32,218 nt of DNA from a virus (taxonomy: Duplodnaviria > Heunggongvirae > Uroviricota > Caudoviricetes > Crassvirales): IMG/VR virus record IMGVR_UViG_3300020050_008479; one strand, 5' to 3'. Under the pieces are notes generated by a model. The model was not told the origin of the DNA and made no database searches. It saw only the letters and a program-made list of their open reading frames with translations. A program made the translations under genes and the position numbers. Position 1 is the stretch's first letter, and each line of letters begins with the position of its first letter. Below, piece by piece: positions 1-18,070 of the stretch.

Positions 1-860
1 AATTTACCAACTCTTTCTTCCATTGACTGGTCGTTTAAGTTTTCGAGTAAATCTTGATTGACTCTTTCGTCAAGCAACTCTTTTGTTAAAGATTCAATCG
101 CGTAAGATTCTAATCCAAATGTTCTATGAAGATAATCCATAACCCAATTACGGAACGATTCCCAAGTTGATTTAGTTTCAGCAGAAGTTCTTTCGTCCCA
201 TATCTCAGATCCTTTTCTACCGATAGCTGTTGCTAGAATCTCTTTATGCAAATCATCTTCCATAAGCTCAGGATACAGAGCTTCTACTTCTGACCATAAC
301 TTAGTACCTCTAAGAGAAGATAGTCCTTTCTGAAGCCTAGGATTAGCTAATCCTTTAGGAAATGAATCAATAAATATATGACTAAACTCGTGTATGGCTG
401 TAGTCTTGAATATTTTTGCTGGATTAATAAGAATTACTGGCTTTCCAGCGGCAATAGTTCTAGGGTCATTTGATCCAAGTACTCTTGAAGTCTCTACGTC
501 TGAATCCAAAATAACATCAACATTCATGTTCTCTTGAAGTAATTCAATTTTTTGAGCAAACGTATTCATATCTTCTTCTAAATAATCTCCATTTAATTGA
601 GACTTTTCTTGTGCATAGGAAAATCCTTTTGCTTTGTCAATTGCCTGAAAAAGAGCAGTATTTGGTATTGCTTTGTTGTTTTCCTCAAGAAACAACTTTC
701 CTTTAGTTCCGTAATTCTTTTCAGCAAAAGCAGAAAATTTCTTATTACTTTTTCTAAATATATTTTCATCTATAATGTTCAAGAACTTATCTATCGCACC
801 ATTAGTGCGCATCCACGCTTTGGTGGATGCTTCACTAGTTTTAAATTCACATGATTTCAT
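1..860 (-). CDS. Large virion protein with zincin-like metallopeptidase motif (3'-partial; runs off the left edge; absent from the ORF track)
   Basis: Hand translation from ATG at 860 is open for 286 codons to the window edge: MKSCEFKTSEAS...TAIHEFSHIFIDS...LHKEILATAIGRKG...EERVGK. The HEFSH (HExxH) motif is at 378-392, with a downstream Glu-containing helix (KEILATAIG). The start lies 1 nt after the RNAP stop (TAA T ATG), which suggests translational coupling. Confidence 0.9.
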   Translation of the reverse strand, partial: MKSCEFKTSEASTKAWMRTNGAIDKFLNIIDENIFRKSNKKFSAFAEKNYGTKGKLFLEENNKAIPNTALFQAIDKAKGFSYAQEKSQLNGDYLEEDMNTFAQKIELLQENMNVDVILDSDVETSRVLGSNDPRTIAAGKPVILINPAKIFKTTAIHEFSHIFIDSFPKGLANPRLQKGLSSLRGTKLWSEVEALYPELMEDDLHKEILATAIGRKGSEIWDERTSAETKSTWESFRNWVMDYLHRTFGLESYAIESLTKELLDERVNQDLLENLNDQSMEERVGK

Positions 861-861
861 A

Positions 862-3800
862 TTAACAGGTTAATGGGTTTTCACTCGTATTTGTTTCGTC
901 TTCTTCTGACAAAGGTAACGCTTTATTTTCTTTCTCTCTAACTGGGGATAACATATCTTCTTTTAAAAATAATCCTCTAGCTCTAGCTTCATCCATAAAC
1001 TCGTTAATTTGAGTCTGTTGAGACTCACTAATATTGTTTTCAGATATTACTGAGTTAGTTGATTTCTTATCGTATTGATATTCAACTATGCTACCATTAT
1101 TGTATTTTGCTCCAAGTTTAAAAGTTCTCACGTAAGTTGGCATAAACTTTTCTTTCTCATTGCCATTCTTATCAACAGTCATGCTTTTAGACATTCCTAC
1201 TAATTTATAAAGAACGGTAGTTTCAGAAGGAATACCACTATACTCTCCATTGTCTTTAAAAACTCTTGAAACAAACTCAGGATAAGTACCAGCTCCATCT
1301 TTAGAAAGTCCGGTCATAATTCCTCCTTTAGTTTCAGTTCCTTCATCGTAAACAAATCCGGTTGACGCAATTGTATTTCCAACTCTCTTAATGTTTTTAG
1401 AAGATACTCTTTGAACTATCTTTCTATCAGCAGAAGAGTGTCTGAACATTTGGTCCCTAAAATCTTCACTCAAGTCCATAGCGTTCATTTCTTGATGAAT
1501 AGCTTTGATGTGTTCTGATACTCCTGCATTAACTAAAGCTTCATGAGGAATATGAGTAAAGAATTGATTTAGATTAGTTTTAAATCCAGATTGGCTAAAT
1601 GCATATCTAATCAGTCTATTTCCTAAAACTCTTTCTTCTTTTATATTACTTCTTAATAGTTCAACCCAAGCTCTATAGATTTTATTATTATAAGTCTTAG
1701 GCTTATTCTTGCTACTAATTTTCAAGAAGTTATATCCTGCAGAACTTCTTATTTCTAGTTCTTGTATTAAGAAATTAGTAGATCCATCTTCTTTCATTTT
1801 GTATATATCTTCCGGAACTTGTCGGAATAACACATCTATGTCTTTCAAGTTGTCTTTAAAGATGTCAAGTCCAGACATAGCATAAGAATAGAAATCAGCA
1901 GAAATGCTTTTTATAAACTCTTCATTTGTAGATAATGCTCCTTTTCCAGTTCTTTCAGACATGTTGTTTATTGTTGATTGAAGAGTTGGATTTGCAGATA
2001 TGAATAAATCATTATCTACGACTAACTTATTAACCCAATCAATACCATTTTGTCTATAAGTACCTGTAAATGTATCTTTAAATTTATCAACAAAACCTTG
2101 AATTTTGTCGTTGAATAATACATTTTCATACTTGTTTTTAGCAACCATCATTTGAGCAAAATCTCCTGCATCAGGAGTTTTAGACGCTCCTACAGCTTCA
2201 GCAAAGAATTTTGATTTCTCTTGAAAGTACTCAAAAATATTAAGAGTTTCCTCTTGCATTGCTACTTCTTCTTCAGTGAAATTACTCATGTCTTTGTCTT
2301 CGCTGAACTTTTTAATAGTCTCTTCTAATTGTTTAAAAGAATACTTTTTAACATAGTTTTCAACATCAATAGCGTTTACAGGTTTTTTACCTAATCCATT
2401 TGACTTTCTAACAAACTCAGTAGCATTAAATCTTTCACCATCAATTGCTAATTCTTGAGAAGTTATACCTTCTGAATTTTTTGTCGTTCTAGTCATCTCA
2501 GAAAGCATTGGCTGAGCAACAAATCTATTTACCCATTCAACTGGAGTTCCAGCGCGCAACAACATAAAGGTAACTCCTGAAGTTATTCCATTGTGATTAC
2601 CTCTAGAAATGTATGGATCTTTAGCAATATCCACATAAGCATTCAAGAAAGCTGAGATTGCATCTGCAATAGCGTGTCCATCATTTATATCGTATTCATT
2701 ATCAAACTTTGTATTACCAAAATTGTCTTTGGCACCTATACCTAAGTATCCGTCAAAAGTTATGTTCTGGTGTCTATTTACCATGTGATCTACAAGTTGA
2801 TTCGCAGTTTGAGCAACACCAATCTTTCCGGATAAGTATTCAAACTTAGTTTTCATTTGGTAGGCAGGAGAATAAAAAGTCAAATCTTCCAGAGAAGTCT
2901 CCGGAAACATTCCAACAATATCGTCCTTGAAAAATGACGCATCAATAGAAGTCATAACCTTATCGTAAGCGGATTCACTCTTAAGAATTGAAGAATACAA
3001 ATCAATTAATCTATTCTGAACAGCCTTCATGCTTTTTGAATTCTCATCGTGAGGAACGGCAGTAACTTTTCCAGTAGTTTTATCTACATGAAGATTTGGC
3101 ATCATTACATACATTTTATCAATATCAAAATCCGAACCAGTCTTAGCCGGAACAGCATCGTATGCAATTATTGAATCTCCAACCCCTGGAGGAAGTATTC
3201 CAACAATTTCCATCGCGTCATTAGACGACATTCCTTGATTAGGAATTCTATAAGTAACCAGCTGCAAAGCAGAAGGATCTATCATTGCCATTAATTGCTT
3301 ACCTGACATTCCATTCCAATCAGTTCCTTCCGGAAGTAATTTAAGTAATGCTGAGTGAGGCATGAAACATTGGCCAGGCATATAAGTTTTAGTTGCCTTG
3401 TCGTAATGTGGCGGTTTCAATCCTTTCTTATCGTAATTGTCAGACACAATCTTAATACCAGATTTCTCAATATCACTAATAGCGTCGAATCCAAATTGAC
3501 TAACTTGAATAAATGAACCACCATTGGTGTAGACCTTTGTCAACTGCTTATTCATCATAGACATAAACACATTCTCAACTTTATTTCTAATTTGAGGTAT
3601 TGCGTCAAATGGCAAATCTTTCTCAAGTGCTGCAAGTATGTTGTCATTTCCACCTCTTGATTTAAACTCAGATATAAGAGAAGAGTAAACTCTATCCATG
3701 TTATTTATCTTCATTTTACCAGTAGATAGATCTTCTTTAATGTCAAATTCTTCCATTAAACTAGCTTTACCCATGTCAGATAAGTTAGATAATGTAGAGT

Positions 3801-6800
3801 GTATCATTTCAAGAACTTTATCTCCTTGAATTTCTTCTCCATTGAAGTTGTAAGTTCCATTTACATCTATACCAGCCAAGATATTTTTTTGAATTTGTGA
3901 ACCAACCATTGTCTCGTGAGCAAGTTTTGTCGGAAGATCTTGTTGTAATTTCCAACCTCTATTCTTTAAAGGAACAGGATTCAATTCAAAATCAACTTTC
4001 ATGTCTCCATTTGGTTCGTGAATTAGTGTAGGTGCAGTAGCTCCAACTTTAATTCCGTCAATAGTTACAACTTCGTGTATCTCATCTTTACCAGAAAGAG
4101 TATTTCCATCTTTATCTTTTGTCATTTTATCCAATAGAGCTTGCATAGGAGTTCCTTTTACTAGCTGTGGTATAAGTACTGCTTGAGAGTATTTAAGATA
4201 AACAGGGACAGTAGAATTAAGCTCAAAGTAAACTCCTTTCATTGGCTGAGCAACTAATTTCATTTCATTTTTAGATAGCTTTTGACCTACTTTTCCATTT
4301 TTAGGATTAACATACATCATTTTTTCCCAAGCAGATTGATGAGATTCTGGACCAGTAGTCCATTGACCTAATCTTTCTTTAAGAAATTTCCATCTTCTTG
4401 GAGTAATCCAGGCTTGAGCATCAGTTGAGTTGACCCCACCTTTAGTGTATGCGTCAGCAATAGATTTGTCTTTTACAGACTCTCTAATTAAATCTACATA
4501 TCTAGAAGATATTTCAACTCCTTTCACAGTTGCTTGATTAAAATACACATGGTCATTAAGCGATAGAAACAATTGTAATCCATCAGTATATGACGCCGGA
4601 GTTCTCTTAATCATGTCAGACATGTTTTTAAAGTATGCAGGATCTCCTAAGAATAATTTGTTATACTCAATTGTATTTATAATACTATTCATAAAGAAGT
4701 CTCCAGACATTGCACGAACCGGATCTCTAGAACCTTCATAGGCTCCAATTATGTTCTCATCAACAGATAAGTTTGTCGCAACTTCAGCAGTGTGAATAAT
4801 TCCCATGTCGTCCATGTTCTTTAAGTTCTCATCTAGTCTAGTTACTAATGCTTTTTTTATTGATTCTTTAACTATAGCTTTTTGCTCATTAGTCATTCCG
4901 GAAGTTGAATACATTCCGTTTTCTTGGCCCAATGGTAATCCGTCTTTATATAAAGTAATGTATTCTAAAGAATCTTTATCCATGTTCTCTGGAGATAAGC
5001 TAGGAAAAGTCTGTGACTTAAGTCCATTAGGAATACCCTTACCTACAGTGTGATAGTGTACTATTAATTTTTCAGGACTTAAAGTCGCAAGTTCGTTGCT
5101 AACTTTTTTCATTCTATTGTACTCATCTTCAAAGTAATCTGATAAAACACTTAAGGTCTCATCATTAATATACCACTCTCCATCAACATAGTCAATTTTG
5201 GAATCAAAAGTTGGCATACCTTCAATCTCAATCTTTCTACCTTTATCAGCAGCAAGAAGAGTTTGTGCGTAATTTTTTCCTCCAGCTTTATGACCAAGAG
5301 TTTTAGCGATTGCGTTGTTAAGCGCATCGACAGGTGAGATTTCTTTGGTGTCTTTACCGTCATTTTCTCCTTTAGATTTGAATGAACTATCTAGTCCAAT
5401 TTGTATTTCTGAGATTCTTCTTTTTGATTCTTTTTCTCTTTTACTTGCATTTGAAGCTATTAAAACTCCTTGTCTACTCTTCTCTGCGTTAAGCAAGTAT
5501 TTAAGCCAAAGAGATCCTTTATGATAAGCACTTACTGCAAGTTTATCTAATTCAGAAGCGTCTCTTTTCCATTCATTTATTACGTTATGTAGGTAAGATG
5601 GATTAGAATAAGCAAAATAACTTTTACCATTATTAGCAAGAACATTGTTTTCAGCCATATTTATTTCAAACAAAGCTTTTGCTCTTGATAATAATTTCAC
5701 AACTTCTTGGTTGTCAAATGGATTTACTTTCTCATCTCCGGCAACCAATGATGTCTTTGGATCAAGTATGTATTTAAGCATGTAGTCAGTTGATTTGAAT
5801 AAATCAAGTATTGACTCAACGGCTTTTTCTTCTCCACCTGTCATTCTCATATAAGAAATAACATCGTTATTAGTTATGTCGGCGCCAAGCCCGTTGAATA
5901 AATCAACTACTTTTGGTATTTGCAACATAACTTGTCTCATTTGAACTGGATGCTCTTGACCAGCTATTAATTGGCCAAAATCTCTCATATTCTCAGTAAG
6001 AGCAATCTTAGTTTGAGCGATAGCATCCCTAGCATCATCAGTTAATTCATCTCCATTAGTGAATGTCTTAGCGAATTTAACTCCCCACTGACCTCGTATT
6101 TTACTGTCTCTTGAATTGGTAGAAGTAGCATTGATTATTTTATACTTATTCGTGGCTTTATCTACCTCAGTTACATAAAAGTTAAGTTTTGATTTAGCAA
6201 AAGTTTGAACAAATTGAGCTTGTTGATTGAGGTCCATTTTGTTTACTCTTTCTAATAGTCCGCCCATCCATGGCTTAACTGAAGCTAAAGCTTTCATTTC
6301 AATCTTCATTATGTCCAATGCGTTGACTAAATCATCGCCATTACTATTGTGAGATACTATATCTGACAATAATGGCTGAAGCGTACCCCAAACATCATCG
6401 AATTCTGCAAACTTAGCTTTACCTAAGAAAGAGTCTCTTTTGTGGCGAATCCTTGGAACAGAAAGATCTTTTACATCCTGCTCGCTAAGATTTCCAATAA
6501 CTTCTCCTTTTAAATGTCTTTGTCTCAATCCGTTGACTTGAACTTGAGTTAATTTATGTCTTTCAGCAACTCTTTTTGAAGCAGCAGAAAACTCAGGATT
6601 ACCTTCAGTGTCCGGCAATAAACTAAGAACTAATTTAATTCTTGCTGGAGCTGTTTCTTTTGAATTAGTTTCAAATGATTCAGCAATATTTATTCCTCCT
6701 GCTTTCTCATCTTCTCCTAATTCAGTTTCGTATTCTCCTTTTTCATTAAGAATGCTTTGACGATAAGTTAAGCCTAATTCTTCAATTTTATTCAACACCT

Positions 6801-7368
6801 CAATCTTAAAATCTTCTTTGTATTTTAAAACCAAATCAGCTCTTCTCAATAATTCTGGATCAGATACTGAGTTTTTGTAGTTTTGAATAAAGTTTTCTAT
6901 AGTAGAGATTACTTTCTTTGGATTTAATTTTGATAAATCTTCAAAGTTCTCAGCCATATTCTCTGTAACAAATGCATTAAGAATTATTTTAGAAACTTCT
7001 TCGGATTGATCTGAAGTCATTCCAGGAAACTTAATTTTGTTAATGTATTTTCTTATTCCATTAGGAAATTGGAAGTAATACTGATCGTATTCAGTAACTT
7101 TGTCTCCTTTGATTACTCTTTTTCTAATCAATTTAGGCTCACCTTGGTCATTAACTCTAGTAGAGATTTTAGATCCTAAAGGTAAATTAATATCTTCTGA
7201 ATGTCCATTTGAAAATGAAGTAGCATAGTCTCCAAAAAGCTCTATGAATTTATTTCCACTAATTTTAGAATACTCAGCAAGTGCCGCGTCTTCTCCTAAG
7301 ATTCTTTCAAGTTCTTTGTACAGTCCGGATTCTCTCCCATCTGTCTTTGCAAATACTTTACAAGCCAT
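862..7368 (-). CDS. Virion-packaged single-chain DNA-dependent RNA polymerase (phi14:2 gp66-like; two-barrel, QDE-1-related)
   Basis: 2168 aa. The catalytic motif GSDFDIDK has D1413-F-D-I-D1417 at nt 3118-3132, preceded by YRIPNQG (3232-3252). Other crAss RNAP-like blocks: DAQAWITP, YLKYS, KLQQDLP, GSQIQKNI, NAYVDIAKDP. Size and motif match phi14:2 gp66 (about 2180 aa, DFDID). Confidence 0.95.
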   Translation of the reverse strand: MACKVFAKTDGRESGLYKELERILGEDAALAEYSKISGNKFIELFGDYATSFSNGHSEDINLPLGSKISTRVNDQGEPKLIRKRVIKGDKVTEYDQYYFQFPNGIRKYINKIKFPGMTSDQSEEVSKIILNAFVTENMAENFEDLSKLNPKKVISTIENFIQNYKNSVSDPELLRRADLVLKYKEDFKIEVLNKIEELGLTYRQSILNEKGEYETELGEDEKAGGINIAESFETNSKETAPARIKLVLSLLPDTEGNPEFSAASKRVAERHKLTQVQVNGLRQRHLKGEVIGNLSEQDVKDLSVPRIRHKRDSFLGKAKFAEFDDVWGTLQPLLSDIVSHNSNGDDLVNALDIMKIEMKALASVKPWMGGLLERVNKMDLNQQAQFVQTFAKSKLNFYVTEVDKATNKYKIINATSTNSRDSKIRGQWGVKFAKTFTNGDELTDDARDAIAQTKIALTENMRDFGQLIAGQEHPVQMRQVMLQIPKVVDLFNGLGADITNNDVISYMRMTGGEEKAVESILDLFKSTDYMLKYILDPKTSLVAGDEKVNPFDNQEVVKLLSRAKALFEINMAENNVLANNGKSYFAYSNPSYLHNVINEWKRDASELDKLAVSAYHKGSLWLKYLLNAEKSRQGVLIASNASKREKESKRRISEIQIGLDSSFKSKGENDGKDTKEISPVDALNNAIAKTLGHKAGGKNYAQTLLAADKGRKIEIEGMPTFDSKIDYVDGEWYINDETLSVLSDYFEDEYNRMKKVSNELATLSPEKLIVHYHTVGKGIPNGLKSQTFPSLSPENMDKDSLEYITLYKDGLPLGQENGMYSTSGMTNEQKAIVKESIKKALVTRLDENLKNMDDMGIIHTAEVATNLSVDENIIGAYEGSRDPVRAMSGDFFMNSIINTIEYNKLFLGDPAYFKNMSDMIKRTPASYTDGLQLFLSLNDHVYFNQATVKGVEISSRYVDLIRESVKDKSIADAYTKGGVNSTDAQAWITPRRWKFLKERLGQWTTGPESHQSAWEKMMYVNPKNGKVGQKLSKNEMKLVAQPMKGVYFELNSTVPVYLKYSQAVLIPQLVKGTPMQALLDKMTKDKDGNTLSGKDEIHEVVTIDGIKVGATAPTLIHEPNGDMKVDFELNPVPLKNRGWKLQQDLPTKLAHETMVGSQIQKNILAGIDVNGTYNFNGEEIQGDKVLEMIHSTLSNLSDMGKASLMEEFDIKEDLSTGKMKINNMDRVYSSLISEFKSRGGNDNILAALEKDLPFDAIPQIRNKVENVFMSMMNKQLTKVYTNGGSFIQVSQFGFDAISDIEKSGIKIVSDNYDKKGLKPPHYDKATKTYMPGQCFMPHSALLKLLPEGTDWNGMSGKQLMAMIDPSALQLVTYRIPNQGMSSNDAMEIVGILPPGVGDSIIAYDAVPAKTGSDFDIDKMYVMMPNLHVDKTTGKVTAVPHDENSKSMKAVQNRLIDLYSSILKSESAYDKVMTSIDASFFKDDIVGMFPETSLEDLTFYSPAYQMKTKFEYLSGKIGVAQTANQLVDHMVNRHQNITFDGYLGIGAKDNFGNTKFDNEYDINDGHAIADAISAFLNAYVDIAKDPYISRGNHNGITSGVTFMLLRAGTPVEWVNRFVAQPMLSEMTRTTKNSEGITSQELAIDGERFNATEFVRKSNGLGKKPVNAIDVENYVKKYSFKQLEETIKKFSEDKDMSNFTEEEVAMQEETLNIFEYFQEKSKFFAEAVGASKTPDAGDFAQMMVAKNKYENVLFNDKIQGFVDKFKDTFTGTYRQNGIDWVNKLVVDNDLFISANPTLQSTINNMSERTGKGALSTNEEFIKSISADFYSYAMSGLDIFKDNLKDIDVLFRQVPEDIYKMKEDGSTNFLIQELEIRSSAGYNFLKISSKNKPKTYNNKIYRAWVELLRSNIKEERVLGNRLIRYAFSQSGFKTNLNQFFTHIPHEALVNAGVSEHIKAIHQEMNAMDLSEDFRDQMFRHSSADRKIVQRVSSKNIKRVGNTIASTGFVYDEGTETKGGIMTGLSKDGAGTYPEFVSRVFKDNGEYSGIPSETTVLYKLVGMSKSMTVDKNGNEKEKFMPTYVRTFKLGAKYNNGSIVEYQYDKKSTNSVISENNISESQQTQINEFMDEARARGLFLKEDMLSPVREKENKALPLSEEDETNTSENPLTC

Positions 7369-7388
7369 ATTTATTATTTTAAATTGTT

Positions 7389-7417
7389 AAAAAATAGCCC
7401 TTCGTTAAAAGGGCTAT
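7389..7417 (-). terminator. Intrinsic terminator between the 1731-aa gene and the RNAP gene
   Basis: Minus strand reads ATAGCCCTT-TTAACG-AAGGGCTAT followed by a T-run: a perfect 9-bp stem, 6-nt loop and U-tract, starting 9 nt after the upstream stop. Confidence 0.85.
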
Positions 7418-7425
7418 ATATTGTT

Positions 7426-10400
7426 TTAGAATCCACAACCTGCTTCATCTTGGAAATCATTATAAAAATCTGACAATGAATCTTCCTCGTTGTATTGAGC
7501 TAGATTAACATCATCATTGCTAACTTGATTAAAATCAGGGACTTTCTCAGTTTCTAATTGAATATCAAGCGTACTAGTTGAATTATTAATTTCATCAAGA
7601 GCAGATAAATCCGCTTGTTCTTGCTCTATCGCTAATTCATTTGACAAATCTACTGAATTCATTCCCATTAATAGCATTTTTGGATCACTAATTTTAGGTG
7701 ATTCTTCTTCTGGATTTTTACTTGCTTGAAGTTCAGCGCTATATGCATCTGCCTGTTCTTTTATAGATATTCTCATTTCAAGAGGAACTGAATCTATCAA
7801 AGCTTGTTCTGATACCGTAAAATCAGTTATCATTTTACCATTGTATAACATTTCTCTAACTAAGTCTTCTCCTGTAGTAGTTATGATTTCTTCAGAACCA
7901 ACCTCTTCAGTTTTACCTGTAAATTTACCGGTGTATTTTGCCATTACTTTGGCTCCAACTGACGATGTAGATAAGATTTCATTACCATTAGAAGCTGAGC
8001 CTGGAGTAATATTGATTATAGTATTTAATGCAGTCGCTGCATAAACCTGATTACCAATAGTTATTTTTTCATACTTAAGAAGTCCTGATTTAAGTAAAGC
8101 TTTGTTGATTAATTTAAAGTCTTTCTTAGGATCTAATTCTTTACCAGTTTTTTCATTAACAACTATCCCTCCATCTTTAATAACTAAGTTGAAATTACTT
8201 TTAGAATCTTTCTTAATCACAACTTTTATTTCATTAGTATCCTGATCAGGCAAGTTTGACATGTCGTTTTGTTCTGAGTTAAGCGCTTTTAATTCAGCAT
8301 CATATTTAGCATTAACTTTTTCTGCTATTTTTGGTATTACAGTTTCTTCAACAAATGCTCTAGCTTCTTCTCTTGTATCAAATCTACCACTTAAAGCTTT
8401 TGAATTTAAATAACCTGTATTAGTATTTGCTTTTAATGCTATATTTACAACAAACTTATCGTCTTGACCATTAATTACACCACCTTCTGCTTCTGAAGTA
8501 TTAAATTCAAATTTTCCAAATTTATATTCTAATTTAGCTAAATCTTCTTGTCTTCTTTTTTCAATTGATTCTACAGTTGGGGAACTATCTATTTTTTTTA
8601 CTTTTTGAGTCTGAACAACTACCTTTGTAGCAGGACCAGAAACTTTCTCTGCATTGTACTTGTCATTAACTGCTTGTTTTGCTAATTCTGCAGTATCTCT
8701 TAATATTTCTACAGCAGTATTAGAAGAGTCATAGTATGTTGCAGCGAATTTACCGTTGGTTGATTTGTCTGAATACGTACCAGCTTTTTCTGACATCTTT
8801 CTTCTTTCAGATTTAGGCTTTCCTCCTGGCACCGGAGGAGTGTGTTGTAATAGTTGAGCTGGATTAGAGACTGGAACTGGTTTAACAGTGTCAGGAGCTT
8901 TAATATAAATATCAGTTTTACCTCCAAATAAAGGCCCGTTAGTTACCGCATCAGTATTTATCAATCCAGAAGATATTGCGTAATCTCTATATGCCGGTGA
9001 AGATTGCCACAATCCAACATTAAATTGTCTTCTTTTAGTATTCATTAAAAACTCAACTAGTTTCTCATGATTGAATAAAGATTTTGGAGTAACTTTTAAA
9101 TCTGCATTACCAAACTTGACCCACTCACCGCTAATAAACAACTCTGAAGCTTTACCTTCAGTTTGAGGAGACACGTATGTAAAGAAATCTACTATATCCA
9201 TTAGAGAAGGATCTGCTTTCTCCATGGCGCCCAACTCTTCTTTCATTGTTTCAAGAATCTTAAGTCTTGTTTCTTCCTTCATTTGTGACAAAGGAGTTTC
9301 AAACTTATTTTCTTTAGTGATTACAGAAGTCAACAATCCTGCTATTATTTCAGCTTCATTTTGACTATGCTTTTTAACGTTAAGTTTTAATGGAAATTTA
9401 GTTCCATCAGCCTTTGGTACTGATAAAAATATTGTACCTCTCATTGGAGTCTTGGCTCCGGTAGTTCCAGTAAGTAACGGAAGCGTTAACTGTCTACCAA
9501 CAAATTCTTTATGACGCTCGCCATCCATATTCATTAACTCTCCGAATTCATTTGTATACATTAAGCTTTCTTCTATAGCCTGAGTCACTTGATCTGGCGA
9601 TGCTTGAGCTCCTTTTAAATCAAACAATTCATCCATTATTGGACCTAAGTGTTGTAAATCACCAATGTTATTCTCTGGTATTACTCCATCAATAGCTGGT
9701 GACGCATTAACTTTTCCTCCATATTGAACAGTTACTTTTGAAGTAGTAGTTTTAGATGGATTAGAATTCATTTGATCTATAAATGCTTTTCTAATAGGAA
9801 AGTCTTGTCTGGCCCAAGCTGCTTCGTATCCTGAATTTTGCCCTTCAAGTCTAGCTGACAAGAATGCACTTCTTTCGTCAAATTCAGTATCTCCATCTTG
9901 CTTATCTATGATTACTTTCAAAGGAAGATGATTGTATACGTTTGCATTTATGATTCCATTATTGAAGTCATCTATTGCTTGTTTTACTAATTGAGGTTGC
10001 TTAGCTCCTGCATAAACTACTGTGCCTGGTTGAATAGTAACCGGAGTTCCTATCTTGTTCTTTCCATTTAACATCCAGTCATTGTAATTTTTATTACCAG
10101 TAGCCCCATAAATACTAGTATTCTCTGAGGCTTCTGACATTTTTTTCTTAGCAATGTCACTTTGTTTAACCATTGCTCCATGAATATCAACCTCTTCTCC
10201 GGCAAGTTCATCTTCTAAATTCTTTCCTACTGGAATTATATTGGCGTCTGGAACAGCGGTTGGATTGTTTATAGCTGAAGCTTGACCTTCTTTAGTAAGA
10301 GTTGTTTTATGCTCGTCTTGCTTAGCTTTAGCGGCACTATTTTTCTCTTCTATAGCTATCTCATCAATTCTTTTATCTACCAACGCGTGTAGTTCAGCTT

Positions 10401-12621
10401 TCTTTTCTTTTGAAGTTTTTGTGTCTTCATCAATATTAGCTTTAGCCTGCATTGCCTGTTCTACTGATTTAAGACTCTTAACTCTATTTCTCATTTGAAC
10501 CATTCTTAATTCTGCCTGATGAGATTTAGATTGAAGCTTAATGTTTTCTTTTTGCATCAAGTTTATAGCGTCAGTAAGTAGAGTATGCTCTGTAGCTTTT
10601 ACTATAAGATCCTCAGAAGATTGCTCATATCCAGCGCCAATTAACTTGTCGCTATCTTTCTCATCTTTTGTTCTTGGATCGTTTGAATTAAGTTCAACCA
10701 TTTTAAGATTTAACTTATCAATTATCTTTTTATTCTTGTCTATTAAGGCCTGTCTGTTTTCTATCTGATACTTTGATTCAGTATTTTTCATTGCAGCTTC
10801 GTGAATCTCATTTGCTTTTTTAAGAGCAACTAAATTTCCTTTTGTTGAGAATTTATCCTGATAATGACTAGTTAATTTGTCTGCATTAGGAACTGAATCT
10901 TTTATGTTTTGAATCTCCTTAGTAACTTCTTTTGTTCTATTATCAAATGATTTTATATAATGGTCATTTGAAGCCATTTTAGCAGCAATATTACTATCGT
11001 ACTTATTGGAATGCTTAAGATAACTTTCTCTTATGCTATGAGCTTGTGATATCAAGCTAGGAACGTATTTCTTAAACAATTCAGGATCTAATTCAATACC
11101 TAAATCTTTTTCAAATCCAGCTTGCTCAGCTTGAGACATTTTTGACATTCCTTGTAAGGATTCAATATACTCAGCAAATTTTCCGTTATCGATAGCATCT
11201 ACTGCCATGTGTACTCCAGAACCGTCAATTGCAGCTTGTCTTTTAACCGGATCTCCAGATTGGTCAGCCTTTGCAATTTCATTCTGCATTAATTGAAATG
11301 AAGCTCCACGTCTAGCGATGTAGTCACCCTGTATCGTAGCGTAGTTTGCTTCTGCATTTTTTCTTTCTGTAGATTTAAACAATTCAGATGTTCCTTTACC
11401 GGCCGCTTGGAAAATATTTCCACCTAATCCTCCCCAGAAGGCAGAAGTAAGCATTTCCTTGTCGCCAATTTTAGAACTTGTTTTTTGATCGTATTCTTTT
11501 TCAGTAATTAATCCTGCTTTTAAATCAGAAAGTAATTTACCTCTCTCAGCTACATAATATTGGTAAGATTCTTCCGCACCCTCTGATGCGAATGTTGCAC
11601 CTCCGGCCATTAATGCTCCTTTTATTCCTGGCTTAACTCCACTTGCAGTTATTTCAGCAATCTTAGATTCCATTTTCATAGACACCGGATTGAATACTTT
11701 TCCTAATGCCAAGTATTGAGGTATGTCTTGAAGCAACATCGCCCAGTCAGATCTGTAAGTAGACGAAGCTCCTTCTGATGCCAATTGAGTTGCTTCTTCT
11801 TCTGTGAAGTACTCTTTAGTTTTTGGATTAATTCTAGACTGAAGTGATGCTTTTTGTTCGTTAAATACTCCTGAAGCTTCCATAGAGTTCTCTATGTGTC
11901 TTGAAACTATAGCTTGAGTAATTCCTTCTGCCATCCATGTTTCGTACTTACCCATTCTTGAAGCTATATCTAAAGATTTGCTGATTATACCGGCTCCTTT
12001 AGAAGCAGTTTTACCAAGCATTCCTAATACTTTAGTTGCGGCTCCGGAAGGAATAAGCATAGACAATGATGAAGCAACAGAAACTCCGTTACTAAACCAC
12101 CATCCGGAATCTCCCATTCCAGAATCTTTTACTTGATGAATAGCCATATTCTCTTGAGCAAATTCACGAGTGTCTTTACCAAGTTCAGTCATCCAGTTTC
12201 CCCAGTTTTGCTCTGTTCCTCCAAGATAATCTATGGCGCTTCCTATCTCTCCAATATAACCAAGTCCTTCTATAGTACCACCAATAACCTCTCCAACAAC
12301 AGCTTGCCCAACCATGTTTCTTGCTTGCTCAAACCATCCTTGTTGATTGGCTCTATCTTCATTAAGAGCCTCAACTCCTCCTGGGCCAAGAACTATATTG
12401 CCTCTGTTGTAATCAGTTTTGTAATCTTCAACATCAATACCTACGTGATAATTAACGTCTCTTTTACCTAAGCTTTTTCTATCAATTCCACCAGGAGCAA
12501 CGTCGTACTCCTGTGGTTTTAATTTTGGTGCTTTTACTGGCGGATCTATTTTTGGTCCTTTATCAATTGTCTTAACTGATTCTTCGGAACTAACTATGTT
12601 GAAATCTTTTTCTTCTGCCAT
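7426..12621 (-). CDS. Giant virion cargo/ejection protein (RNAP-cluster protein)
   Basis: 1731 aa, immediately upstream of the RNAP gene. Gly/Ala-rich hydrophobic and amphipathic segments at about aa 100-410, then a coiled-coil-like region and an acidic C-tail ending in GCGF. No catalytic motif recognised. Confidence 0.75.
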   Translation of the reverse strand: MAEEKDFNIVSSEESVKTIDKGPKIDPPVKAPKLKPQEYDVAPGGIDRKSLGKRDVNYHVGIDVEDYKTDYNRGNIVLGPGGVEALNEDRANQQGWFEQARNMVGQAVVGEVIGGTIEGLGYIGEIGSAIDYLGGTEQNWGNWMTELGKDTREFAQENMAIHQVKDSGMGDSGWWFSNGVSVASSLSMLIPSGAATKVLGMLGKTASKGAGIISKSLDIASRMGKYETWMAEGITQAIVSRHIENSMEASGVFNEQKASLQSRINPKTKEYFTEEEATQLASEGASSTYRSDWAMLLQDIPQYLALGKVFNPVSMKMESKIAEITASGVKPGIKGALMAGGATFASEGAEESYQYYVAERGKLLSDLKAGLITEKEYDQKTSSKIGDKEMLTSAFWGGLGGNIFQAAGKGTSELFKSTERKNAEANYATIQGDYIARRGASFQLMQNEIAKADQSGDPVKRQAAIDGSGVHMAVDAIDNGKFAEYIESLQGMSKMSQAEQAGFEKDLGIELDPELFKKYVPSLISQAHSIRESYLKHSNKYDSNIAAKMASNDHYIKSFDNRTKEVTKEIQNIKDSVPNADKLTSHYQDKFSTKGNLVALKKANEIHEAAMKNTESKYQIENRQALIDKNKKIIDKLNLKMVELNSNDPRTKDEKDSDKLIGAGYEQSSEDLIVKATEHTLLTDAINLMQKENIKLQSKSHQAELRMVQMRNRVKSLKSVEQAMQAKANIDEDTKTSKEKKAELHALVDKRIDEIAIEEKNSAAKAKQDEHKTTLTKEGQASAINNPTAVPDANIIPVGKNLEDELAGEEVDIHGAMVKQSDIAKKKMSEASENTSIYGATGNKNYNDWMLNGKNKIGTPVTIQPGTVVYAGAKQPQLVKQAIDDFNNGIINANVYNHLPLKVIIDKQDGDTEFDERSAFLSARLEGQNSGYEAAWARQDFPIRKAFIDQMNSNPSKTTTSKVTVQYGGKVNASPAIDGVIPENNIGDLQHLGPIMDELFDLKGAQASPDQVTQAIEESLMYTNEFGELMNMDGERHKEFVGRQLTLPLLTGTTGAKTPMRGTIFLSVPKADGTKFPLKLNVKKHSQNEAEIIAGLLTSVITKENKFETPLSQMKEETRLKILETMKEELGAMEKADPSLMDIVDFFTYVSPQTEGKASELFISGEWVKFGNADLKVTPKSLFNHEKLVEFLMNTKRRQFNVGLWQSSPAYRDYAISSGLINTDAVTNGPLFGGKTDIYIKAPDTVKPVPVSNPAQLLQHTPPVPGGKPKSERRKMSEKAGTYSDKSTNGKFAATYYDSSNTAVEILRDTAELAKQAVNDKYNAEKVSGPATKVVVQTQKVKKIDSSPTVESIEKRRQEDLAKLEYKFGKFEFNTSEAEGGVINGQDDKFVVNIALKANTNTGYLNSKALSGRFDTREEARAFVEETVIPKIAEKVNAKYDAELKALNSEQNDMSNLPDQDTNEIKVVIKKDSKSNFNLVIKDGGIVVNEKTGKELDPKKDFKLINKALLKSGLLKYEKITIGNQVYAATALNTIINITPGSASNGNEILSTSSVGAKVMAKYTGKFTGKTEEVGSEEIITTTGEDLVREMLYNGKMITDFTVSEQALIDSVPLEMRISIKEQADAYSAELQASKNPEEESPKISDPKMLLMGMNSVDLSNELAIEQEQADLSALDEINNSTSTLDIQLETEKVPDFNQVSNDDVNLAQYNEEDSLSDFYNDFQDEAGCGF

Positions 12622-12632
12622 GTTTTTATTTA

Positions 12633-14864
12633 TTATCGTTGATAAGCATCTAATATGTCTATAACTGCATCGACTCCTCCTGCTGGAAGACCTTTGCTTT
12701 TAACCACATCTTTTCCGCCACTTTTATTATATCTGTCTTTATCTATCTTGTAAACTACAAAAGATTCTGATCCTTCATCTTCTTTTCTTATTTTCTCAAC
12801 ATAAAGTAATTGACCGTCTTTAGTTTCTTGATTTGGAATAACTCCATGAGAAAATGATTGTTGATGAATTCCCATTCCTCCTACATCTCCTGCGTAATAT
12901 GAATTCTTAATCATTCTATATCCATCGTTTTTGTATGCTCCTGAATTAACTAAAGATTGTCCAACTTGTCTTTGAAGGATTTTACCTTGCTCTCCTCTTG
13001 TTATGGCTCTTGCAGCAAGGAACGTTCCGTCTTTATCTTTAGCAACTAAAGTTTCAATTGGATTTCCAGCTAAATCATAACCATTTGTTGGCATTACGTA
13101 ATACTTAGTTCCTTTTGGTTGAGCATCTCTAAATTCATCTAACGATGCGCCTGAATTAGCTTCTTTCCATCCTTGACCTCCACGAGCGTTGAATGAATCA
13201 GTAAGTGCTTTTTGAGCGGCTCCAGTAACACTAGAATACTTACCTGTTGATGATCCATCAAATGTTTGGTAACTTGCTGCTGCAGGGTTGTCTTTAAGAT
13301 AATTCTTAGCTTTCTTTTCATAAGAATCAGTTTTAGCAAGATACTCTCCGTAAGCTTGATTAACACTTCCATTTTTAGGAAACAATAAGCCTTTATTAAG
13401 CATTATTAATTTTTTAACTTCAAATTTATATGCGCTTTCATTTGGTATAATCATCATTGAAAGTTTTGTTCTTTGAGAATCAGTAAGTCCTAGTTTTTTC
13501 TCTTGAGCTTTTCTGTAATCTCTTTGAACTAATTCTCCTCCAAAAAGACCTCTAATTTTCTCTCCAAAAGAAGGAGCATTTTTAAGCATGTTGTCTATTC
13601 TAGTATCAATACTAGCACCCTCTGCTACTCTTCTTCTATCGATATTATTCATGCCGGCATTAGCTCTTTCGTAAATTGCATTAAGATTAGAAGATAAGTT
13701 TTGATATTTAATACCAGCTTGTTGATTGGCATTATTTAATCTATTCCATTCATCATCAGTTCTTGGATCAATTCCTTTTCCTTTAAGAGCTTCAGCTTTC
13801 TTTCTCAATTGATAAGAAGTAGAATCTATCTCTCCTTTAGCTATACCAAGATTAGATTTTAAATCTTCATATTTAACAGGAGGAATATCTAGTAATCCTG
13901 AATCTGCAGCAATAACCATGTCATTTGCAGCCTTCTCGTCTAAGCCTCTATTCATCATTGCTATTCCTACGTGATCTGTAACCATTGTATACTTAGCGTC
14001 TTCTTTTCTGTAAGCGGCACCTGTAGCAGCTCCAAGTAATTGGGCTCCAAAGTAAGATTTAGGAACAAATACTTCCTTACTAACTCCGTCTTTCTTTACA
14101 ATTTGGTATTCACCAATATTTGTTGGATCTTTTTCTCCAGAAAAGGCAGAAGATTGTTTTAACGAGGCTTGTAATTTATGGTCATATTGAGCTTGAAGCG
14201 CCAATGCCTTGATTATTTTGGAAGCATCTTTATGCTCTACCGTTCCACTCTTCCATGCAGTTTCGAATTGAGCAACAGTCCCATACTTTTGAAGCATGAT
14301 TGGATCTGTATCTGCGGCGACCTTGGCGATATTGTCGTTAATCCATTTATTAGTATCAACATAATCTTCAAGTTCTTTTCCTGAGAAAGAATTGAATTTT
14401 CCTGCTCCTGCATCAGTTCCTTTGAATGATGCTACTTGAGCTTGAGCCCATTTCTTTGCTTCAGAAGGAGACCATCCGGCCTGTCTTTCTTTCTTTTCAG
14501 TAAGATCTTTAACAAATGCTGAAGCTGAGGAGTAATTCGCTTGCGCGTTACCAATCAATCCTTGTTGTCCGAATTCTTTTTCTTTAGACCTCTTAAGTTC
14601 ATTAAGTTTAGCCATAGTGTTTCTATCAACTCCTCTATCTAATAAAGTAGCTGTTATTTTATTTGCTTCACCTCTCAAGCTTTCTAGCTTTCCTGTGACA
14701 GCCTCTCTGTCTTGTTCTAGACTAGATGCTTGTAATGCAGCATATTCATTAGCAGCACTTTGCGCTTCGTCATGTTGCTTTTGCTTAGCCATTGGAATCA
14801 TCATTATTGTCTGTAAATCCAGAGGTTTAAATGATCCAGTGCTTAGTGATGTGTATCTATTCAT
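12633..14864 (-). CDS. Virion cargo protein (crAss-like)
   Basis: 743 aa, Cys-free, helical-looking N-terminus (SFKPLDLQTIMMIPMAKQKQHDEA) resembling crAss cargo proteins; lies within the cargo cluster. Confidence 0.65.
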   Translation of the reverse strand: MNRYTSLSTGSFKPLDLQTIMMIPMAKQKQHDEAQSAANEYAALQASSLEQDREAVTGKLESLRGEANKITATLLDRGVDRNTMAKLNELKRSKEKEFGQQGLIGNAQANYSSASAFVKDLTEKKERQAGWSPSEAKKWAQAQVASFKGTDAGAGKFNSFSGKELEDYVDTNKWINDNIAKVAADTDPIMLQKYGTVAQFETAWKSGTVEHKDASKIIKALALQAQYDHKLQASLKQSSAFSGEKDPTNIGEYQIVKKDGVSKEVFVPKSYFGAQLLGAATGAAYRKEDAKYTMVTDHVGIAMMNRGLDEKAANDMVIAADSGLLDIPPVKYEDLKSNLGIAKGEIDSTSYQLRKKAEALKGKGIDPRTDDEWNRLNNANQQAGIKYQNLSSNLNAIYERANAGMNNIDRRRVAEGASIDTRIDNMLKNAPSFGEKIRGLFGGELVQRDYRKAQEKKLGLTDSQRTKLSMMIIPNESAYKFEVKKLIMLNKGLLFPKNGSVNQAYGEYLAKTDSYEKKAKNYLKDNPAAASYQTFDGSSTGKYSSVTGAAQKALTDSFNARGGQGWKEANSGASLDEFRDAQPKGTKYYVMPTNGYDLAGNPIETLVAKDKDGTFLAARAITRGEQGKILQRQVGQSLVNSGAYKNDGYRMIKNSYYAGDVGGMGIHQQSFSHGVIPNQETKDGQLLYVEKIRKEDEGSESFVVYKIDKDRYNKSGGKDVVKSKGLPAGGVDAVIDILDAYQR

Positions 14865-15022: not shown

Positions 15023-18000
15023 TTATTCTGTAGCCGCGTCTTTTAATTTCTGATCGGCAAGTAATTTCTTGTATTTACCTTTCCAGTCATAATCAGAACC
15101 CATAAGCTCAGGGAATTTCTTGTACAATTCTTCTTGACCAATTCCACCTAAGTCAGCACCTATGGCAGTTTTTAATCTACTTTTCTCTGTATCATAAGCA
15201 CCTTTATTTCTTGCTCTAATATCCTGAGCAAGAGTTTGTTGTTGAAGATTAGTTGTATCAACTCCAAGATTAAATGACTGTTCTTGAGCATTCTCTCTAG
15301 CATTAGCTTCTTGACTTTTCATAAATGCATCGCTTAAAGCTTTTGTTGCGTTTAATTGAGTTCCAAGTAAGTTTGCTCTAGCTGCATTTCCGGAACCTTC
15401 TGAAGAAGACAATATGGCTTCTCTGTTACCGGCAGTTTCTTCTCTAACTAAATTAACCAATCCTTGTTCGTCTACTACATTTTTCTTGTATCTAGTACTT
15501 AATTCAGGAGTAGTTTCTTGTTCTGGTTTTTTTAGATTAGCTAATTGCATTATGTTTCCAATTGCAGGAGCATACCTTAATGCGTCTTTATTGTTTCCTG
15601 CAAATTCAGCAACATCAATTCCAGTAAGTTTAAGTTTTTGCATCGCAGTCATCTTGTCAGCTTGCTTCTTTCCTAAGTTAGGAAGTTTTATTAAACCAAG
15701 TTTACTTTCCTTTACATAATTATCTTCATTAAGCAAACTAGACTCAAGTGTGTCTTTACCTGTGTAAATCTTATCTAACTTCTTTAATTCTGCAGGCGTA
15801 ATAGTTCCTACTGATTCAATAGTCTCTCTTGATTTTGGCTTAGCCTTTCCTTTTTCTTTTCCTCCTCCGTCAAATCTATTCATTTCTTCACCTCCTAACG
15901 CAAATTTATTTTTATCTAGATATTGATTGTATGCTTTTTCATTGGCAAGATCTTTAGCGTCTTGCTCCATTAAATTAGCGTAGTTTTTGTCTCCAGGATT
16001 ATATTGTTTTCTATACTTCTGAGTATTACCAACAGCTTTCATGTCATCTGCTAAGAAGTCCAAGCTATTCTTTTTACCTACTGTCGGTCCAGAACGAAGC
16101 TTCTTATTATAGTCTTCTACAGCTTTAGGATTTTTTCTAATATACTCGTCAAGTAATTTCTTATCAGATATCTGGTAATACTGTCCATGAAAGTCTTTAG
16201 TAGCTTTAACTCCAGGAGCCTTTAAATCAGCAAAATGTCTTAACGGCTCTGATCCTACATACTTGTCATTACCTTTATAGTTGTTTGACATAGAAAGTAA
16301 ATCTATTGTAGAACCCATTTTTTTAATCTCTTTACCGTAGTTCATGCCCTTTCCGTATTGACCTCCATAATTAGATTCTCTATTTATTGTGGCTCCAAGA
16401 TCACCTCTTTTAAGCCCCGCTCTTTTCTCAGCAGCTTCAACTGCATCAATCAATGCAGTGTCTACTTCAGCAAGCTTGTTTCTACCACCATTTAATTTTA
16501 TATACTTTCCGCTTGGCACAACTTGATTATTTCTTGAGATAGTGTCCATTTTAGCACTCTTAAAATCTCTGTACTCTTTATCAAGAGAGTCAAAATTAAC
16601 TGCCGGTTTGTATTTAGGTTTATTAGAATTTTTTCCAACTGCCATTAACGTTTCTGCTACAGATTTGGGTCTAGGCCCAAATGGATTTTCATTACCTCCT
16701 TCAGCAAACTGACTGTCATTTACAGCGGCGTCTGCATAAGTAGCATTTCTATTAGCAATGTTTGCATCTTTCTGTTGCTTCTTTGCTCCAAAGAATCCTG
16801 CGGCTCCACCAATAACTGCTCCAGCGGCTGCTCCCCATGGCCCTAATACCATTCCGGCAGAAGCTCCTTTTGCGGCACCAGCTAATGCGGCATTACCAGC
16901 TTTTTTACCTTCAACTTTAACTCTACCCGATGTGTCTACTCCTGTTGGACCAAAAGCTTCTTGACCAAGTTCTATTGCTGTGGCTCCCATTTGAGCATAA
17001 CCTGCAACTCCCGGGCCAGAACCTCCGGCAGCTTTTCCTGCTCCATCTGAAATTCCGCTTGTGGCTGGACCCATAGAAGGACTAGGATTAGATTGAGGAT
17101 TGTATCCAGACACAGAACTAAGCTGACTTGCCGTTTGAGGATTGATTCCTTCTTCTCTTACCTTTGGATTTATTTGACCAGGATTTGTAGTGAAGTATGG
17201 ATTGTTATTCTGGTAGTATTCACTTGGATCTCCTCCAAATTCAAAATCATTAGTTTCTTCTTTATCTTCTCCATCAGCTCCAACGCTACTAGCTGTTTTG
17301 GCTAATGACATTATTGATGAAGATATTGATTGGTCATTTGCGGGTATTACTGGAGAGAATCTTTGCTTTGCAGTTTCAGGCATGGAATGCAAGTCTTCTT
17401 CATCTCCACCTAAAGCCATTTTACTTTGTCCTTGCATGTAAGCTTTCCATTGAGGAGTTCTTTGAACAGCCGTCATTTCTTCTTGATTAACAAATTCTCT
17501 ATGTCTTAATGGATCAAATCCAGGTTCACCTGCATTCTTACTGTATAAATAGAATCCACTTTTTCCAGTCTCTCCCGAAGTAACTCCCGGTTGATATCTA
17601 ACAATTTGCTTTGTATCAAAGTCCATGTTTTCATTAGTTGGAGAAGTTCCTATTCCGGTAAGACCTACAACTTTACTTGTTATGTTTGCTTTAGTAGCTG
17701 GAATTTCTTCTCCTGGACCACCATAAGCGTATTGATTGCCTCCATAAGCACTTTGTATTTGACTCATCAAATCTTCTTCTGCTCCTTGCTCTTGATTGTA
17801 CTCTTGAGTTATTTCCTCTTCATCTAAAGGCATTCCTTCTGACCCGGCGACTAAATCTCCTCCACTTCTTTCTGGTTCCTCTTGAGCTTCTTGCTGAGCT
17901 TTTACATGCTCTTGCATTTGCTTAAGTCTGTCAAGCATTTCCTTTTCAGTATTTATTGATTCAGGATCAGTTCTTTCTTTGAATTTAGATTGAATCTTCT

Positions 18001-18070
18001 TACTCGCATCTGCGAAACTAAGTCCGTCTATGTACCTAGGTAGATTGAATTGTTCTAGCATTATATTCAT
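15023..18070 (-). CDS. Modular virion cargo protein with glycine-zipper segment and lytic transglycosylase-like domain
   Basis: 1015 aa, Cys-free. N-terminal SFADASKK...ERTDPES block typical of crAss cargo proteins; glycine zipper at aa 392-428; SLT-like ATINRESNYG (E565) and QYNPGDKNY (Y690); repeated xxxGG motifs. Confidence 0.75.
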   Translation of the reverse strand: MNIMLEQFNLPRYIDGLSFADASKKIQSKFKERTDPESINTEKEMLDRLKQMQEHVKAQQEAQEEPERSGGDLVAGSEGMPLDEEEITQEYNQEQGAEEDLMSQIQSAYGGNQYAYGGPGEEIPATKANITSKVVGLTGIGTSPTNENMDFDTKQIVRYQPGVTSGETGKSGFYLYSKNAGEPGFDPLRHREFVNQEEMTAVQRTPQWKAYMQGQSKMALGGDEEDLHSMPETAKQRFSPVIPANDQSISSSIMSLAKTASSVGADGEDKEETNDFEFGGDPSEYYQNNNPYFTTNPGQINPKVREEGINPQTASQLSSVSGYNPQSNPSPSMGPATSGISDGAGKAAGGSGPGVAGYAQMGATAIELGQEAFGPTGVDTSGRVKVEGKKAGNAALAGAAKGASAGMVLGPWGAAAGAVIGGAAGFFGAKKQQKDANIANRNATYADAAVNDSQFAEGGNENPFGPRPKSVAETLMAVGKNSNKPKYKPAVNFDSLDKEYRDFKSAKMDTISRNNQVVPSGKYIKLNGGRNKLAEVDTALIDAVEAAEKRAGLKRGDLGATINRESNYGGQYGKGMNYGKEIKKMGSTIDLLSMSNNYKGNDKYVGSEPLRHFADLKAPGVKATKDFHGQYYQISDKKLLDEYIRKNPKAVEDYNKKLRSGPTVGKKNSLDFLADDMKAVGNTQKYRKQYNPGDKNYANLMEQDAKDLANEKAYNQYLDKNKFALGGEEMNRFDGGGKEKGKAKPKSRETIESVGTITPAELKKLDKIYTGKDTLESSLLNEDNYVKESKLGLIKLPNLGKKQADKMTAMQKLKLTGIDVAEFAGNNKDALRYAPAIGNIMQLANLKKPEQETTPELSTRYKKNVVDEQGLVNLVREETAGNREAILSSSEGSGNAARANLLGTQLNATKALSDAFMKSQEANARENAQEQSFNLGVDTTNLQQQTLAQDIRARNKGAYDTEKSRLKTAIGADLGGIGQEELYKKFPELMGSDYDWKGKYKKLLADQKLKDAATE

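Follow-up and report, generated by a model that had tools for sequence, protein, structure and literature searches.

Facing terminal cysteines suggest a head-to-tail chain of RNA polymerase cargo proteins in crAss-like phages

Introduction

The unsolved question of how podoviruses pass megadalton protein loads through a channel of 25-45 Å, in the correct order and quantities, concerns N4-like phages as well as crassviruses, which are the most abundant viruses of the human gut. The question is raised in a particular form by a stretch of DNA of 32,218 nucleotides (nt; referred to here as the window) from the virus record IMGVR_UViG_3300020050_008479, in which three giant proteins encoded by consecutive genes carry nearly all of their few cysteines (Cys) at the ends that face one another. 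The window is identified as the RNA polymerase cargo block of a marine crAss-like phage, because it encodes a homologue of the phi14:2 polymerase gp66, flanked by orthologues of phi14:2 g067 and g065, and because its source is a complete virus record (97,718 bp, with direct terminal repeats). Here, we describe the distribution of these Cys residues in the window and among its relatives, and weigh what could connect them.

Results

Three giant proteins with Cys at their facing ends

The large open reading frames (ORFs) of the window, which has a G+C content of ~34%, are all found on the minus strand in its ORF listing. The first link of the proposed chain is a protein of 1731 amino acids (aa; positions 7426-12621), assigned as the orthologue of phi14:2 g067 and crAss001 gp47; the match to g067 is weak, a collinear stretch of 310 residues (BLASTP, E 3e-14), and occurs at the same gene position. 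The middle link is the virion RNA polymerase (2168 aa; 862-7368), the orthologue of phi14:2 gp66. It is 33% identical to g066 over 88% of the query (tblastn), and its sole PDB sequence match at E ≤ 1e-3 is 6VR4 (E 9.5e-233), with no N4 polymerase entry. The DFDID catalytic motif, read from the translation, occupies residues 1413-1417 (3118-3132) and is likewise reported for gp66 (preprint 10.1101/2020.03.07.982082). The third link, of which the window holds the first 286 codons (3-860), is the orthologue of phi14:2 g065 and crAss001 gp49 (BLASTP to g065, E 1e-100 over 1120 residues) and is complete at 1384 aa in the phage's own genome (L087:70-4224). It contains a zincin HExxH motif, HEFSH at residue 157 (bases 392-378), which is invariant in 51 homologues. 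Searches of Pfam and PHROGs assigned no family to any of the three proteins. In phi14:2, g067, g066, and g065 are virion proteins by mass spectrometry (tandem mass spectrometry notes in the record; preprint 10.1101/2020.03.07.982082), as are gp47, gp50, and gp49 in crAss001 (PMC10172136); by this orthology, the three proteins encoded in the window would also be virion components that enter the host.

Together, the three proteins contain 5 Cys in 5283 residues, and 4 of the 5 lie within 14 facing terminal positions. The only Cys of the first link is Cys 1729 (TGT codon, 7435-7437), two residues ahead of the stop codon in the ending DEAGCGF. The polymerase begins MACK, with Cys 3 (TGT, 7360-7362), and its final residue is Cys 2168 (TGT, 865-867), in the ending NPLTC. 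The third link begins MKSC, and Cys 4 (TGT, 849-851) is the sole Cys in its 1384 aa. The one internal Cys, residue 1334 of the polymerase (PGQCFMPHS; 3367-3369), is a lineage-specific substitution at a variable position inside a conserved polymerase motif and is kept in close relatives (P0006-P0013 and P0015). The computed probability of four facing-end Cys arising by chance in this phage is ~2.5e-10. An earlier reading of the window from its letters alone (the original prediction) had reported a single Cys in the first link, at position 1729, three in the polymerase (position 3, one internal, and the last residue), Cys 4 in the visible part of the next protein, and none in upstream proteins of 743 and 1015 aa; all of this was borne out by the translations, and it extends to the full length of the third link. 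The same reading described acidic tails ahead of the C-terminal Cys residues, which is correct for this phage (15 and 14 Asp or Glu in the last 60 residues) but not in general, as the tails of many relatives are Lys-rich.

Conservation of the terminal Cys residues

Homologues of all three proteins were sought in a collection of 5.8 billion proteins and their Cys positions tabulated. The gene order of the window is that of phi14:2, relative to which the window phage is a distant member (polymerase identity ~33%), and phi14:2 has a cleaner version of the pattern: g067 (1797 aa) ends in its single Cys, g066 (2180 aa) carries Cys 3 and Cys 2179, and the only Cys of g065 (1421 aa) is Cys 3. Unfused polymerases (about 2030-2460 aa, 29-97% identity) contain exactly two Cys in nearly all cases, one at position 3-4 and one in the last few residues. 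A single Cys is present in the last 1-14 residues of 57 of 62 gp67-like proteins and at position 3-4 of ~55 of 61 gp65-like proteins. When the C-terminal 150 residues of 44 polymerases are aligned, the Cys forms the sole invariant column. Overall, the N-terminal Cys is at position 3-4 in ~90% of cases, and the C-terminal Cys is followed by 0-2 residues in ~80%. Lys is frequent next to the terminal Cys, and no other potential metal ligand (His, Asp, or a second Cys) is conserved. A lipoprotein-type function for the N-terminal Cys was considered and rejected, given the lack of a signal peptide or lipobox and the location of the Cys at position 3-4. Intestiviridae follow the rule (in LMMB, Cys 1956 of a 1957-aa protein and Cys 3 of a 4070-aa protein), and so do Suoliviridae; these gut lineages tolerate more internal Cys.

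Some polymerase homologues (including P0019, P0024, P0028, P0047, P0061, P0064, and P0073) have added domains, either of helicase type (PF13604, PF13245, and PF13538) or PF18760, PF25176, or PF08719. Close relatives of the 1731-aa protein (P0126-P0131) contain an FtsK-gamma domain (PF09397). The modules of the injected chain thus differ between phages, and the terminal Cys stays.

The junctions between the genes were examined in 77 IMG/VR loci around polymerase homologues, which were parsed and grouped into 61 clusters at ~90% identity. Both facing ends carry Cys in 46 of 47 clusters with a separate gp67/polymerase junction and in 53 of 53 with a separate polymerase/gp65 junction, a total of 99 of 100 where the control ORFs predict ~0.7%. 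Outer ends lack Cys: none was found in 47 first-link N-termini, and none in the last-link C-termini except in L069 (see below). Across the chain proteins, there are 205 terminal and 19 internal Cys in 303,854 residues, and internal Cys is ~140-fold depleted; control ORFs of the same loci contain 0.88% Cys, with Cys in the first 8 residues of 4.7% and in the last 15 residues of 14.2%. Two apparent exceptions are accounted for by the assemblies: P0200 belongs to a fused ORF of which the contig ends (L061) left only the tail, and the upstream ORF in L010 is broken, where the near-identical L008 and L009 are intact. ORFs that start MCAIMSC or MWIMSC probably begin at the inner Met. Judged from these sequences, the terminal Cys pattern is a rule of the clade and not a local oddity.

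Fusions, fissions, and intron breaks

In several lineages, two of the three proteins form a single polypeptide. Polymerase+gp65 fusions (3354-3650 aa; examples are L006, L007, and L031, with putative fusion/partner pairs P0157-P0020, P0172-P0032, and P0171-P0035, each assigned to a contig of equal length) have only the N-terminal Cys left, and their upstream partner retains its C-terminal Cys. The reciprocal arrangement is seen in gp67+polymerase fusions (L040, 3900 aa; L066, 4392 aa; L069; and L077; further examples are FpV4 gp32, 4287 aa, a 4946-aa protein of cr118_1, and a 4464-aa protein of cr52_1), in which only the C-terminal Cys is left and the next protein retains its N-terminal Cys. 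BLAST confirmed that these are true fusions, and the linker in L006 (~106 aa, compared with ~104 aa for the summed tails) contains no Cys. None of 9 fused junction clusters has Cys at the junction, and the unfused junction of the same block retains its pair. The original prediction had proposed that terminal Cys should go together in adjacent genes that are separate and be missing from fused ones, and the contrast between 99 of 100 separate and 0 of 9 fused junctions agrees with that expectation. The fusion state of polymerase and gp65 changes 4 times on a tree of 119 polymerases; gp67+polymerase fusions occur in at least 3 places on the locus tree, with the separate forms L060 and L062 nested among fused ones. 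Over both junctions, this gives at least 7 independent changes, the counts being minimum estimates from FastTree trees.

L069 offers the converse case. The counterpart of the 4392-aa L066 protein, whose single Cys is residue 4391, is split here into proteins of 3890 and 1167 aa, and the new break has Cys on both new ends (NCK at the end of the first and MASC at the start of the second), where the unbroken L066 protein has none. The result is a four-link chain (L069:2999-22097), in which the 3890-aa protein (ending NCK) is followed by the 1167-aa protein (MASC at the start, NCK at the end) and by one of 1308 aa (starting MSSC). Similarity to the C-terminal 600 residues of the L066 protein was found for the 1167-aa piece, which has no Pfam match. 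ORF breaks caused by introns are a natural negative control for the rule: in L070, L054, and L055, the polymerase ORF is interrupted within the DFDID motif by a group I intron, and the ORF ends there without Cys. The intron was identified in L070 (L070:11589-11866; RF00028, 85 bits, E 2e-22), with split, weaker matches in L054 (L054:11580-12482). In L054 and L055, it bears a Cys-rich ORF of 214 aa, probably a homing endonuclease.

The fused forms bear directly on the possibility that the two terminal Cys of the polymerase constitute an intramolecular redox switch that keeps the enzyme inactive in the virion, with the Cys residues of its partners serving separate roles. Although gp66 crystallized in a self-inhibited state that needs relief after entry (preprint 10.1101/2020.03.07.982082), polymerase+gp65 fusions hold only the N-terminal Cys and gp67+polymerase fusions only the C-terminal one. 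Because the fused forms hold one Cys, an intramolecular polymerase pair is impossible in many lineages, and we regard such a switch as very unlikely. Both an intramolecular polymerase disulfide and a single Zn(Cys)4 site were rejected because the fused forms hold a single pair.

The same comparisons reduce the likelihood that the terminal Cys residues are not paired with one another at all, with each instead binding elsewhere: to the portal or the inside of the capsid, to a second copy of its own protein (giving homodimers), or, after entry, to a host target; under this explanation, Cys was lost in fusions since it could not serve that role from an internal position. In favor of such roles, some of the smaller cargo proteins carry an isolated terminal Cys, namely an 861-aa protein of LMMB (Cys 860) and FpV4 gp30 (Cys 5). 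Set against this, Cys is confined to facing ends with the outer-end counts given above, the extra Cys of L069 is matched by an extra protein, the number of Cys drops by exactly two with each fusion, and a new break puts Cys on both new ends. We therefore consider unpaired roles unlikely. The LMMB protein (L082:1792-4377) and FpV4 gp30 (598 aa; L083:2087-3883) are upstream, cargo-like proteins with no obvious facing partner.

The rule is independent of gene arrangement

The original prediction stated that the pattern follows gene order exactly. This holds in the window, but across the clade the pattern tracks orthology instead, as is evident where the gene for the first partner lies on the other strand and its product nevertheless has a C-terminal Cys. 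In crAss001, whose gp47-gp50-gp49 trio is orthologous to phi14:2 g067-g066-g065 and follows the same rule, the gene for gp47 (2341 aa, with Cys 2339 alone) is on one strand and those for gp50 (Cys 5, 1334, and 2404) and gp49 (only Cys 5) are on the other. IAS virus has the same arrangement, with gp058 on the opposite strand and Cys at its end. Because the rule persists in these two viruses with the partner gene on the other strand, it is read as a feature of the proteins. In several loci, a ferritin or DUF5856 gene is inserted between the polymerase and its partner and the Cys pair is retained; the gaps between the genes at the junctions span -13 to +714 nt, and the terminal Cys codon is TGT in some cases and TGC in others. 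The insertions were seen in several marine crAss-like phages in the interval between the polymerase and gp65-like genes (ferritin-like, PF00210, E 1.5e-14; DUF5856, E 1.8e-19; L025:14980-15459 and L022:14194-14544, with similar ORFs in L026, L028, L032, L034, L044, and L045), and the inserted proteins have internal but no terminal Cys.

The block in the window consists of three ORFs, separated by stop codons, rather than the single reading frame across the junctions that characterizes the true crAss polyproteins. The spacers are 57 nt and 1 nt, the latter with a change of frame. A terminator-like hairpin on the minus strand (7394-7417; stem of 10 pairs, loop of 4 nt, and a TTTTT tail) lies in the longer spacer, which separates the first gene from the polymerase gene, and these two genes may sit on different transcripts.

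A nucleotide or translational-coupling signal at the junctions was rejected in view of the opposite-strand partner, the inserted genes, the use of both Cys codons, the variable gaps, and the terminator in the spacer. More broadly, phage proteins are Cys-poor in general and these genes are usually adjacent, which could favor an origin of the pattern in chance, composition, gene calling, or a junction signal in the DNA; we give this almost no credence, given the probability computed for the window, the excess of Cys-bearing junctions over the control expectation, and the survival of the rule through changes in strand, gene content, and codon.

Neighboring genes

Two further proteins without Cys are encoded upstream of the chain. 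The 743-aa protein (12633-14864, minus strand) is probably also cargo, outside the Cys chain. The 1015-aa protein (15023-18070, minus strand) is cargo-like and has a weak match to crAss_CARG1 (PF25725, E 3.6e-5), which falls under the curated cut-off.

Discussion

The comparative data show that the facing ends are functionally coupled in pairs and that the coupling is interchangeable in evolution with a peptide bond. The chemistry of the coupling is a further step, and an interchain disulfide is the simplest that would serve. We infer the disulfides themselves, the timing of their oxidation, the ejection of all three proteins as one thread in fixed order through the tail, and release by reduction. 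In the resulting model, which we consider probable, head-to-tail disulfides turn the gp67-like protein, the virion RNA polymerase, and the gp65-like zincin protein into a linear "virtual polyprotein" that is reduced in the host cytoplasm. Two interchain bonds, Cys 1729-Cys 3 and Cys 2168-Cys 4, would form once the virion has left the reducing cytoplasm, and the product would be an almost linear chain of ~5280 residues. Because each C-terminal Cys is followed by 0-2 residues and each N-terminal Cys is the third or fourth residue, the side stubs at a joint would be only 1-3 residues long, and the joint would be thread-like and could cross a narrow channel unfolded. Other Cys residues would have been purged so that no off-pathway cross-link blocks the passage, as in other ejected phage proteins. 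On arrival, thiol reductants of the host cytoplasm would cut the joints and yield three free proteins. A disulfide is favored because the thiol alone is conserved, disulfides are present in crAss001 virions, the cargo must travel at least partly unfolded, and the Cys positions are extremely terminal. In crAss001, the reported disulfides are in tail and portal-vertex proteins only, and the constrictions to be passed measure 25-50 Å (PMC10172136). The tie may serve co-packaging, ordered co-ejection, or both.

The termini could also be joined directly through their Cys residues by other means, such as a bridging metal ion (in a Zn(Cys)4 hook made by two junctions, for example) or another thiol chemistry, as in a thioether or thioester. 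The comparative data speak to the coupling of the ends and not to its chemistry, and one metal could serve two junctions where a capsid contains several copies of the chain; the 6 copies of each protein per capsid given for crAss001 illustrate capacity only (PMC10172136). Against such a link, Cys alone is conserved at each end, with no co-conserved His, Asp, or second Cys, and no fold able to catalyze thioester chemistry is evident. Fused lineages work with just two Cys, which rules out a single Zn(Cys)4 site drawing on all four termini. A non-disulfide link is accordingly improbable in our estimation, if slightly less so than unpaired Cys residues.

Several observations weigh against the disulfide-linked chain. 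At the one exceptional separate junction (L042), the upstream Cys lies 32 residues short of the end. Conditions inside the virions of gut phages may remain reducing. Where a capsid contains more than one copy of each protein, nothing apparent from the sequences would enforce the pairing of one protein with the next over promiscuous pairs of two C-termini, two N-termini, or the wrong C- and N-termini. The tails around the Cys are poorly conserved in alignments of the relatives, and there is consequently no evident docking surface to bring the thiols together. A complex prediction for the last 150 residues of the polymerase with the first 286 of the third link gave a score of 0.00, with the partner's own fold uncertain, and weighs on neither side. 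No match to thioredoxin (PF00085), a possible catalyst of the oxidation, was found in the complete 97.7-kb phage genome; Erv1/Alr (PF04777) was also unmatched there, and likewise in control genomes, making that result uninformative. The unpaired terminal Cys of the LMMB 861-aa protein and FpV4 gp30 belong on the same side. The supplement of the crAss001 atlas has no per-protein data comparing reduced and non-reduced samples (PMC10172136).

A functional parallel is found in Schitoviridae (N4 gp50, gp51, and gp52; DEV gp71, gp72, and gp73), where a giant virion polymerase and its partners likewise travel through a narrow podovirus tail, probably unfolded. Cys is strongly suppressed in all of the proteins ejected by these phages (PMC11445570; PMC13434306), and the N4-like ejection proteins contain none (PMC11445570). 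The depletion of internal Cys is the only such property shared with the proteins described here, which are not Cys-free but have 4 terminal and 1 internal Cys. The Schitoviridae polymerase is a single chain of ~3400-3500 residues without Cys; in the crAss-like phages, the cargo is in pieces, and Cys is found exactly at the cut ends. The enzymes also differ in family, in that the N4 polymerase is T7-like (PMC13434306), whereas the polymerase in the window matched only 6VR4 and does not fall in the single-chain T7-like class. Closer to hand, the fused crAss polymerase polyproteins (FpV4 gp32, the cr118_1 protein of 4946 aa, and the p-crAssphage-type protein of 4070 aa) have the same domains in the same order, and we read them as the covalent equivalent of the proposed chain. 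In these, a peptide bond replaces the Cys pair at the junction, and release has been suggested to occur by proteolysis (preprint 10.1101/2020.03.07.982082) rather than by reduction.

For reductive release, the proposed chain draws on an analogy with interchain-disulfide AB toxins of bacteria, in which one disulfide holds two chains together during unfolded membrane translocation and is reduced in the cytosol by the thioredoxin system (PMC6899712). The analogy is functional and involves no homology: the toxin chains come from one nicked precursor and their bond is not end to end, whereas the phage proteins are separately encoded and would be joined C-to-N. The original prediction that such chaining is undescribed is consistent with full-text literature searches. 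The phi14:2 and crAss001 papers propose non-covalent interactions or cleavage of a fused polyprotein and mention neither the terminal Cys nor a covalent link between the three proteins, and the gp66 preprint (10.1101/2020.03.07.982082) makes no mention of cysteine or disulfide. No description of an end-to-end Cys tie was found in that preprint, the crAss001 atlas, the N4 and DEV papers, or the full-text searches, which suggests that the proposed tying of cargo proteins into one thread was previously undescribed.

A more general interpretation can be put forward, tentatively and with less confidence than the disulfide-linked chain itself. The terminal Cys pair may be a general, movable coupler, in which disulfide and peptide bond are interchangeable, the reducing power of the host cytoplasm signals arrival, uncoupling the train and activating the polymerase, and the coupler fixes 1:1:1 packaging and the order of entry. 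Interchangeability of the two bonds would allow modules to be cut, fused, or inserted anywhere along the injected protein train; examples would be the additional link of 1167 aa in L069 and the polymerases that have gained helicase and other domains. If the proposal is correct, a reversible covalent tie from end to end would explain the ordered co-ejection of these proteins and their equal stoichiometry, as well as the frequent gene fusions and fissions in this block. Such a tie would likewise provide a natural instance of redox-released protein concatenation, and a possible design principle for phage-based protein delivery.

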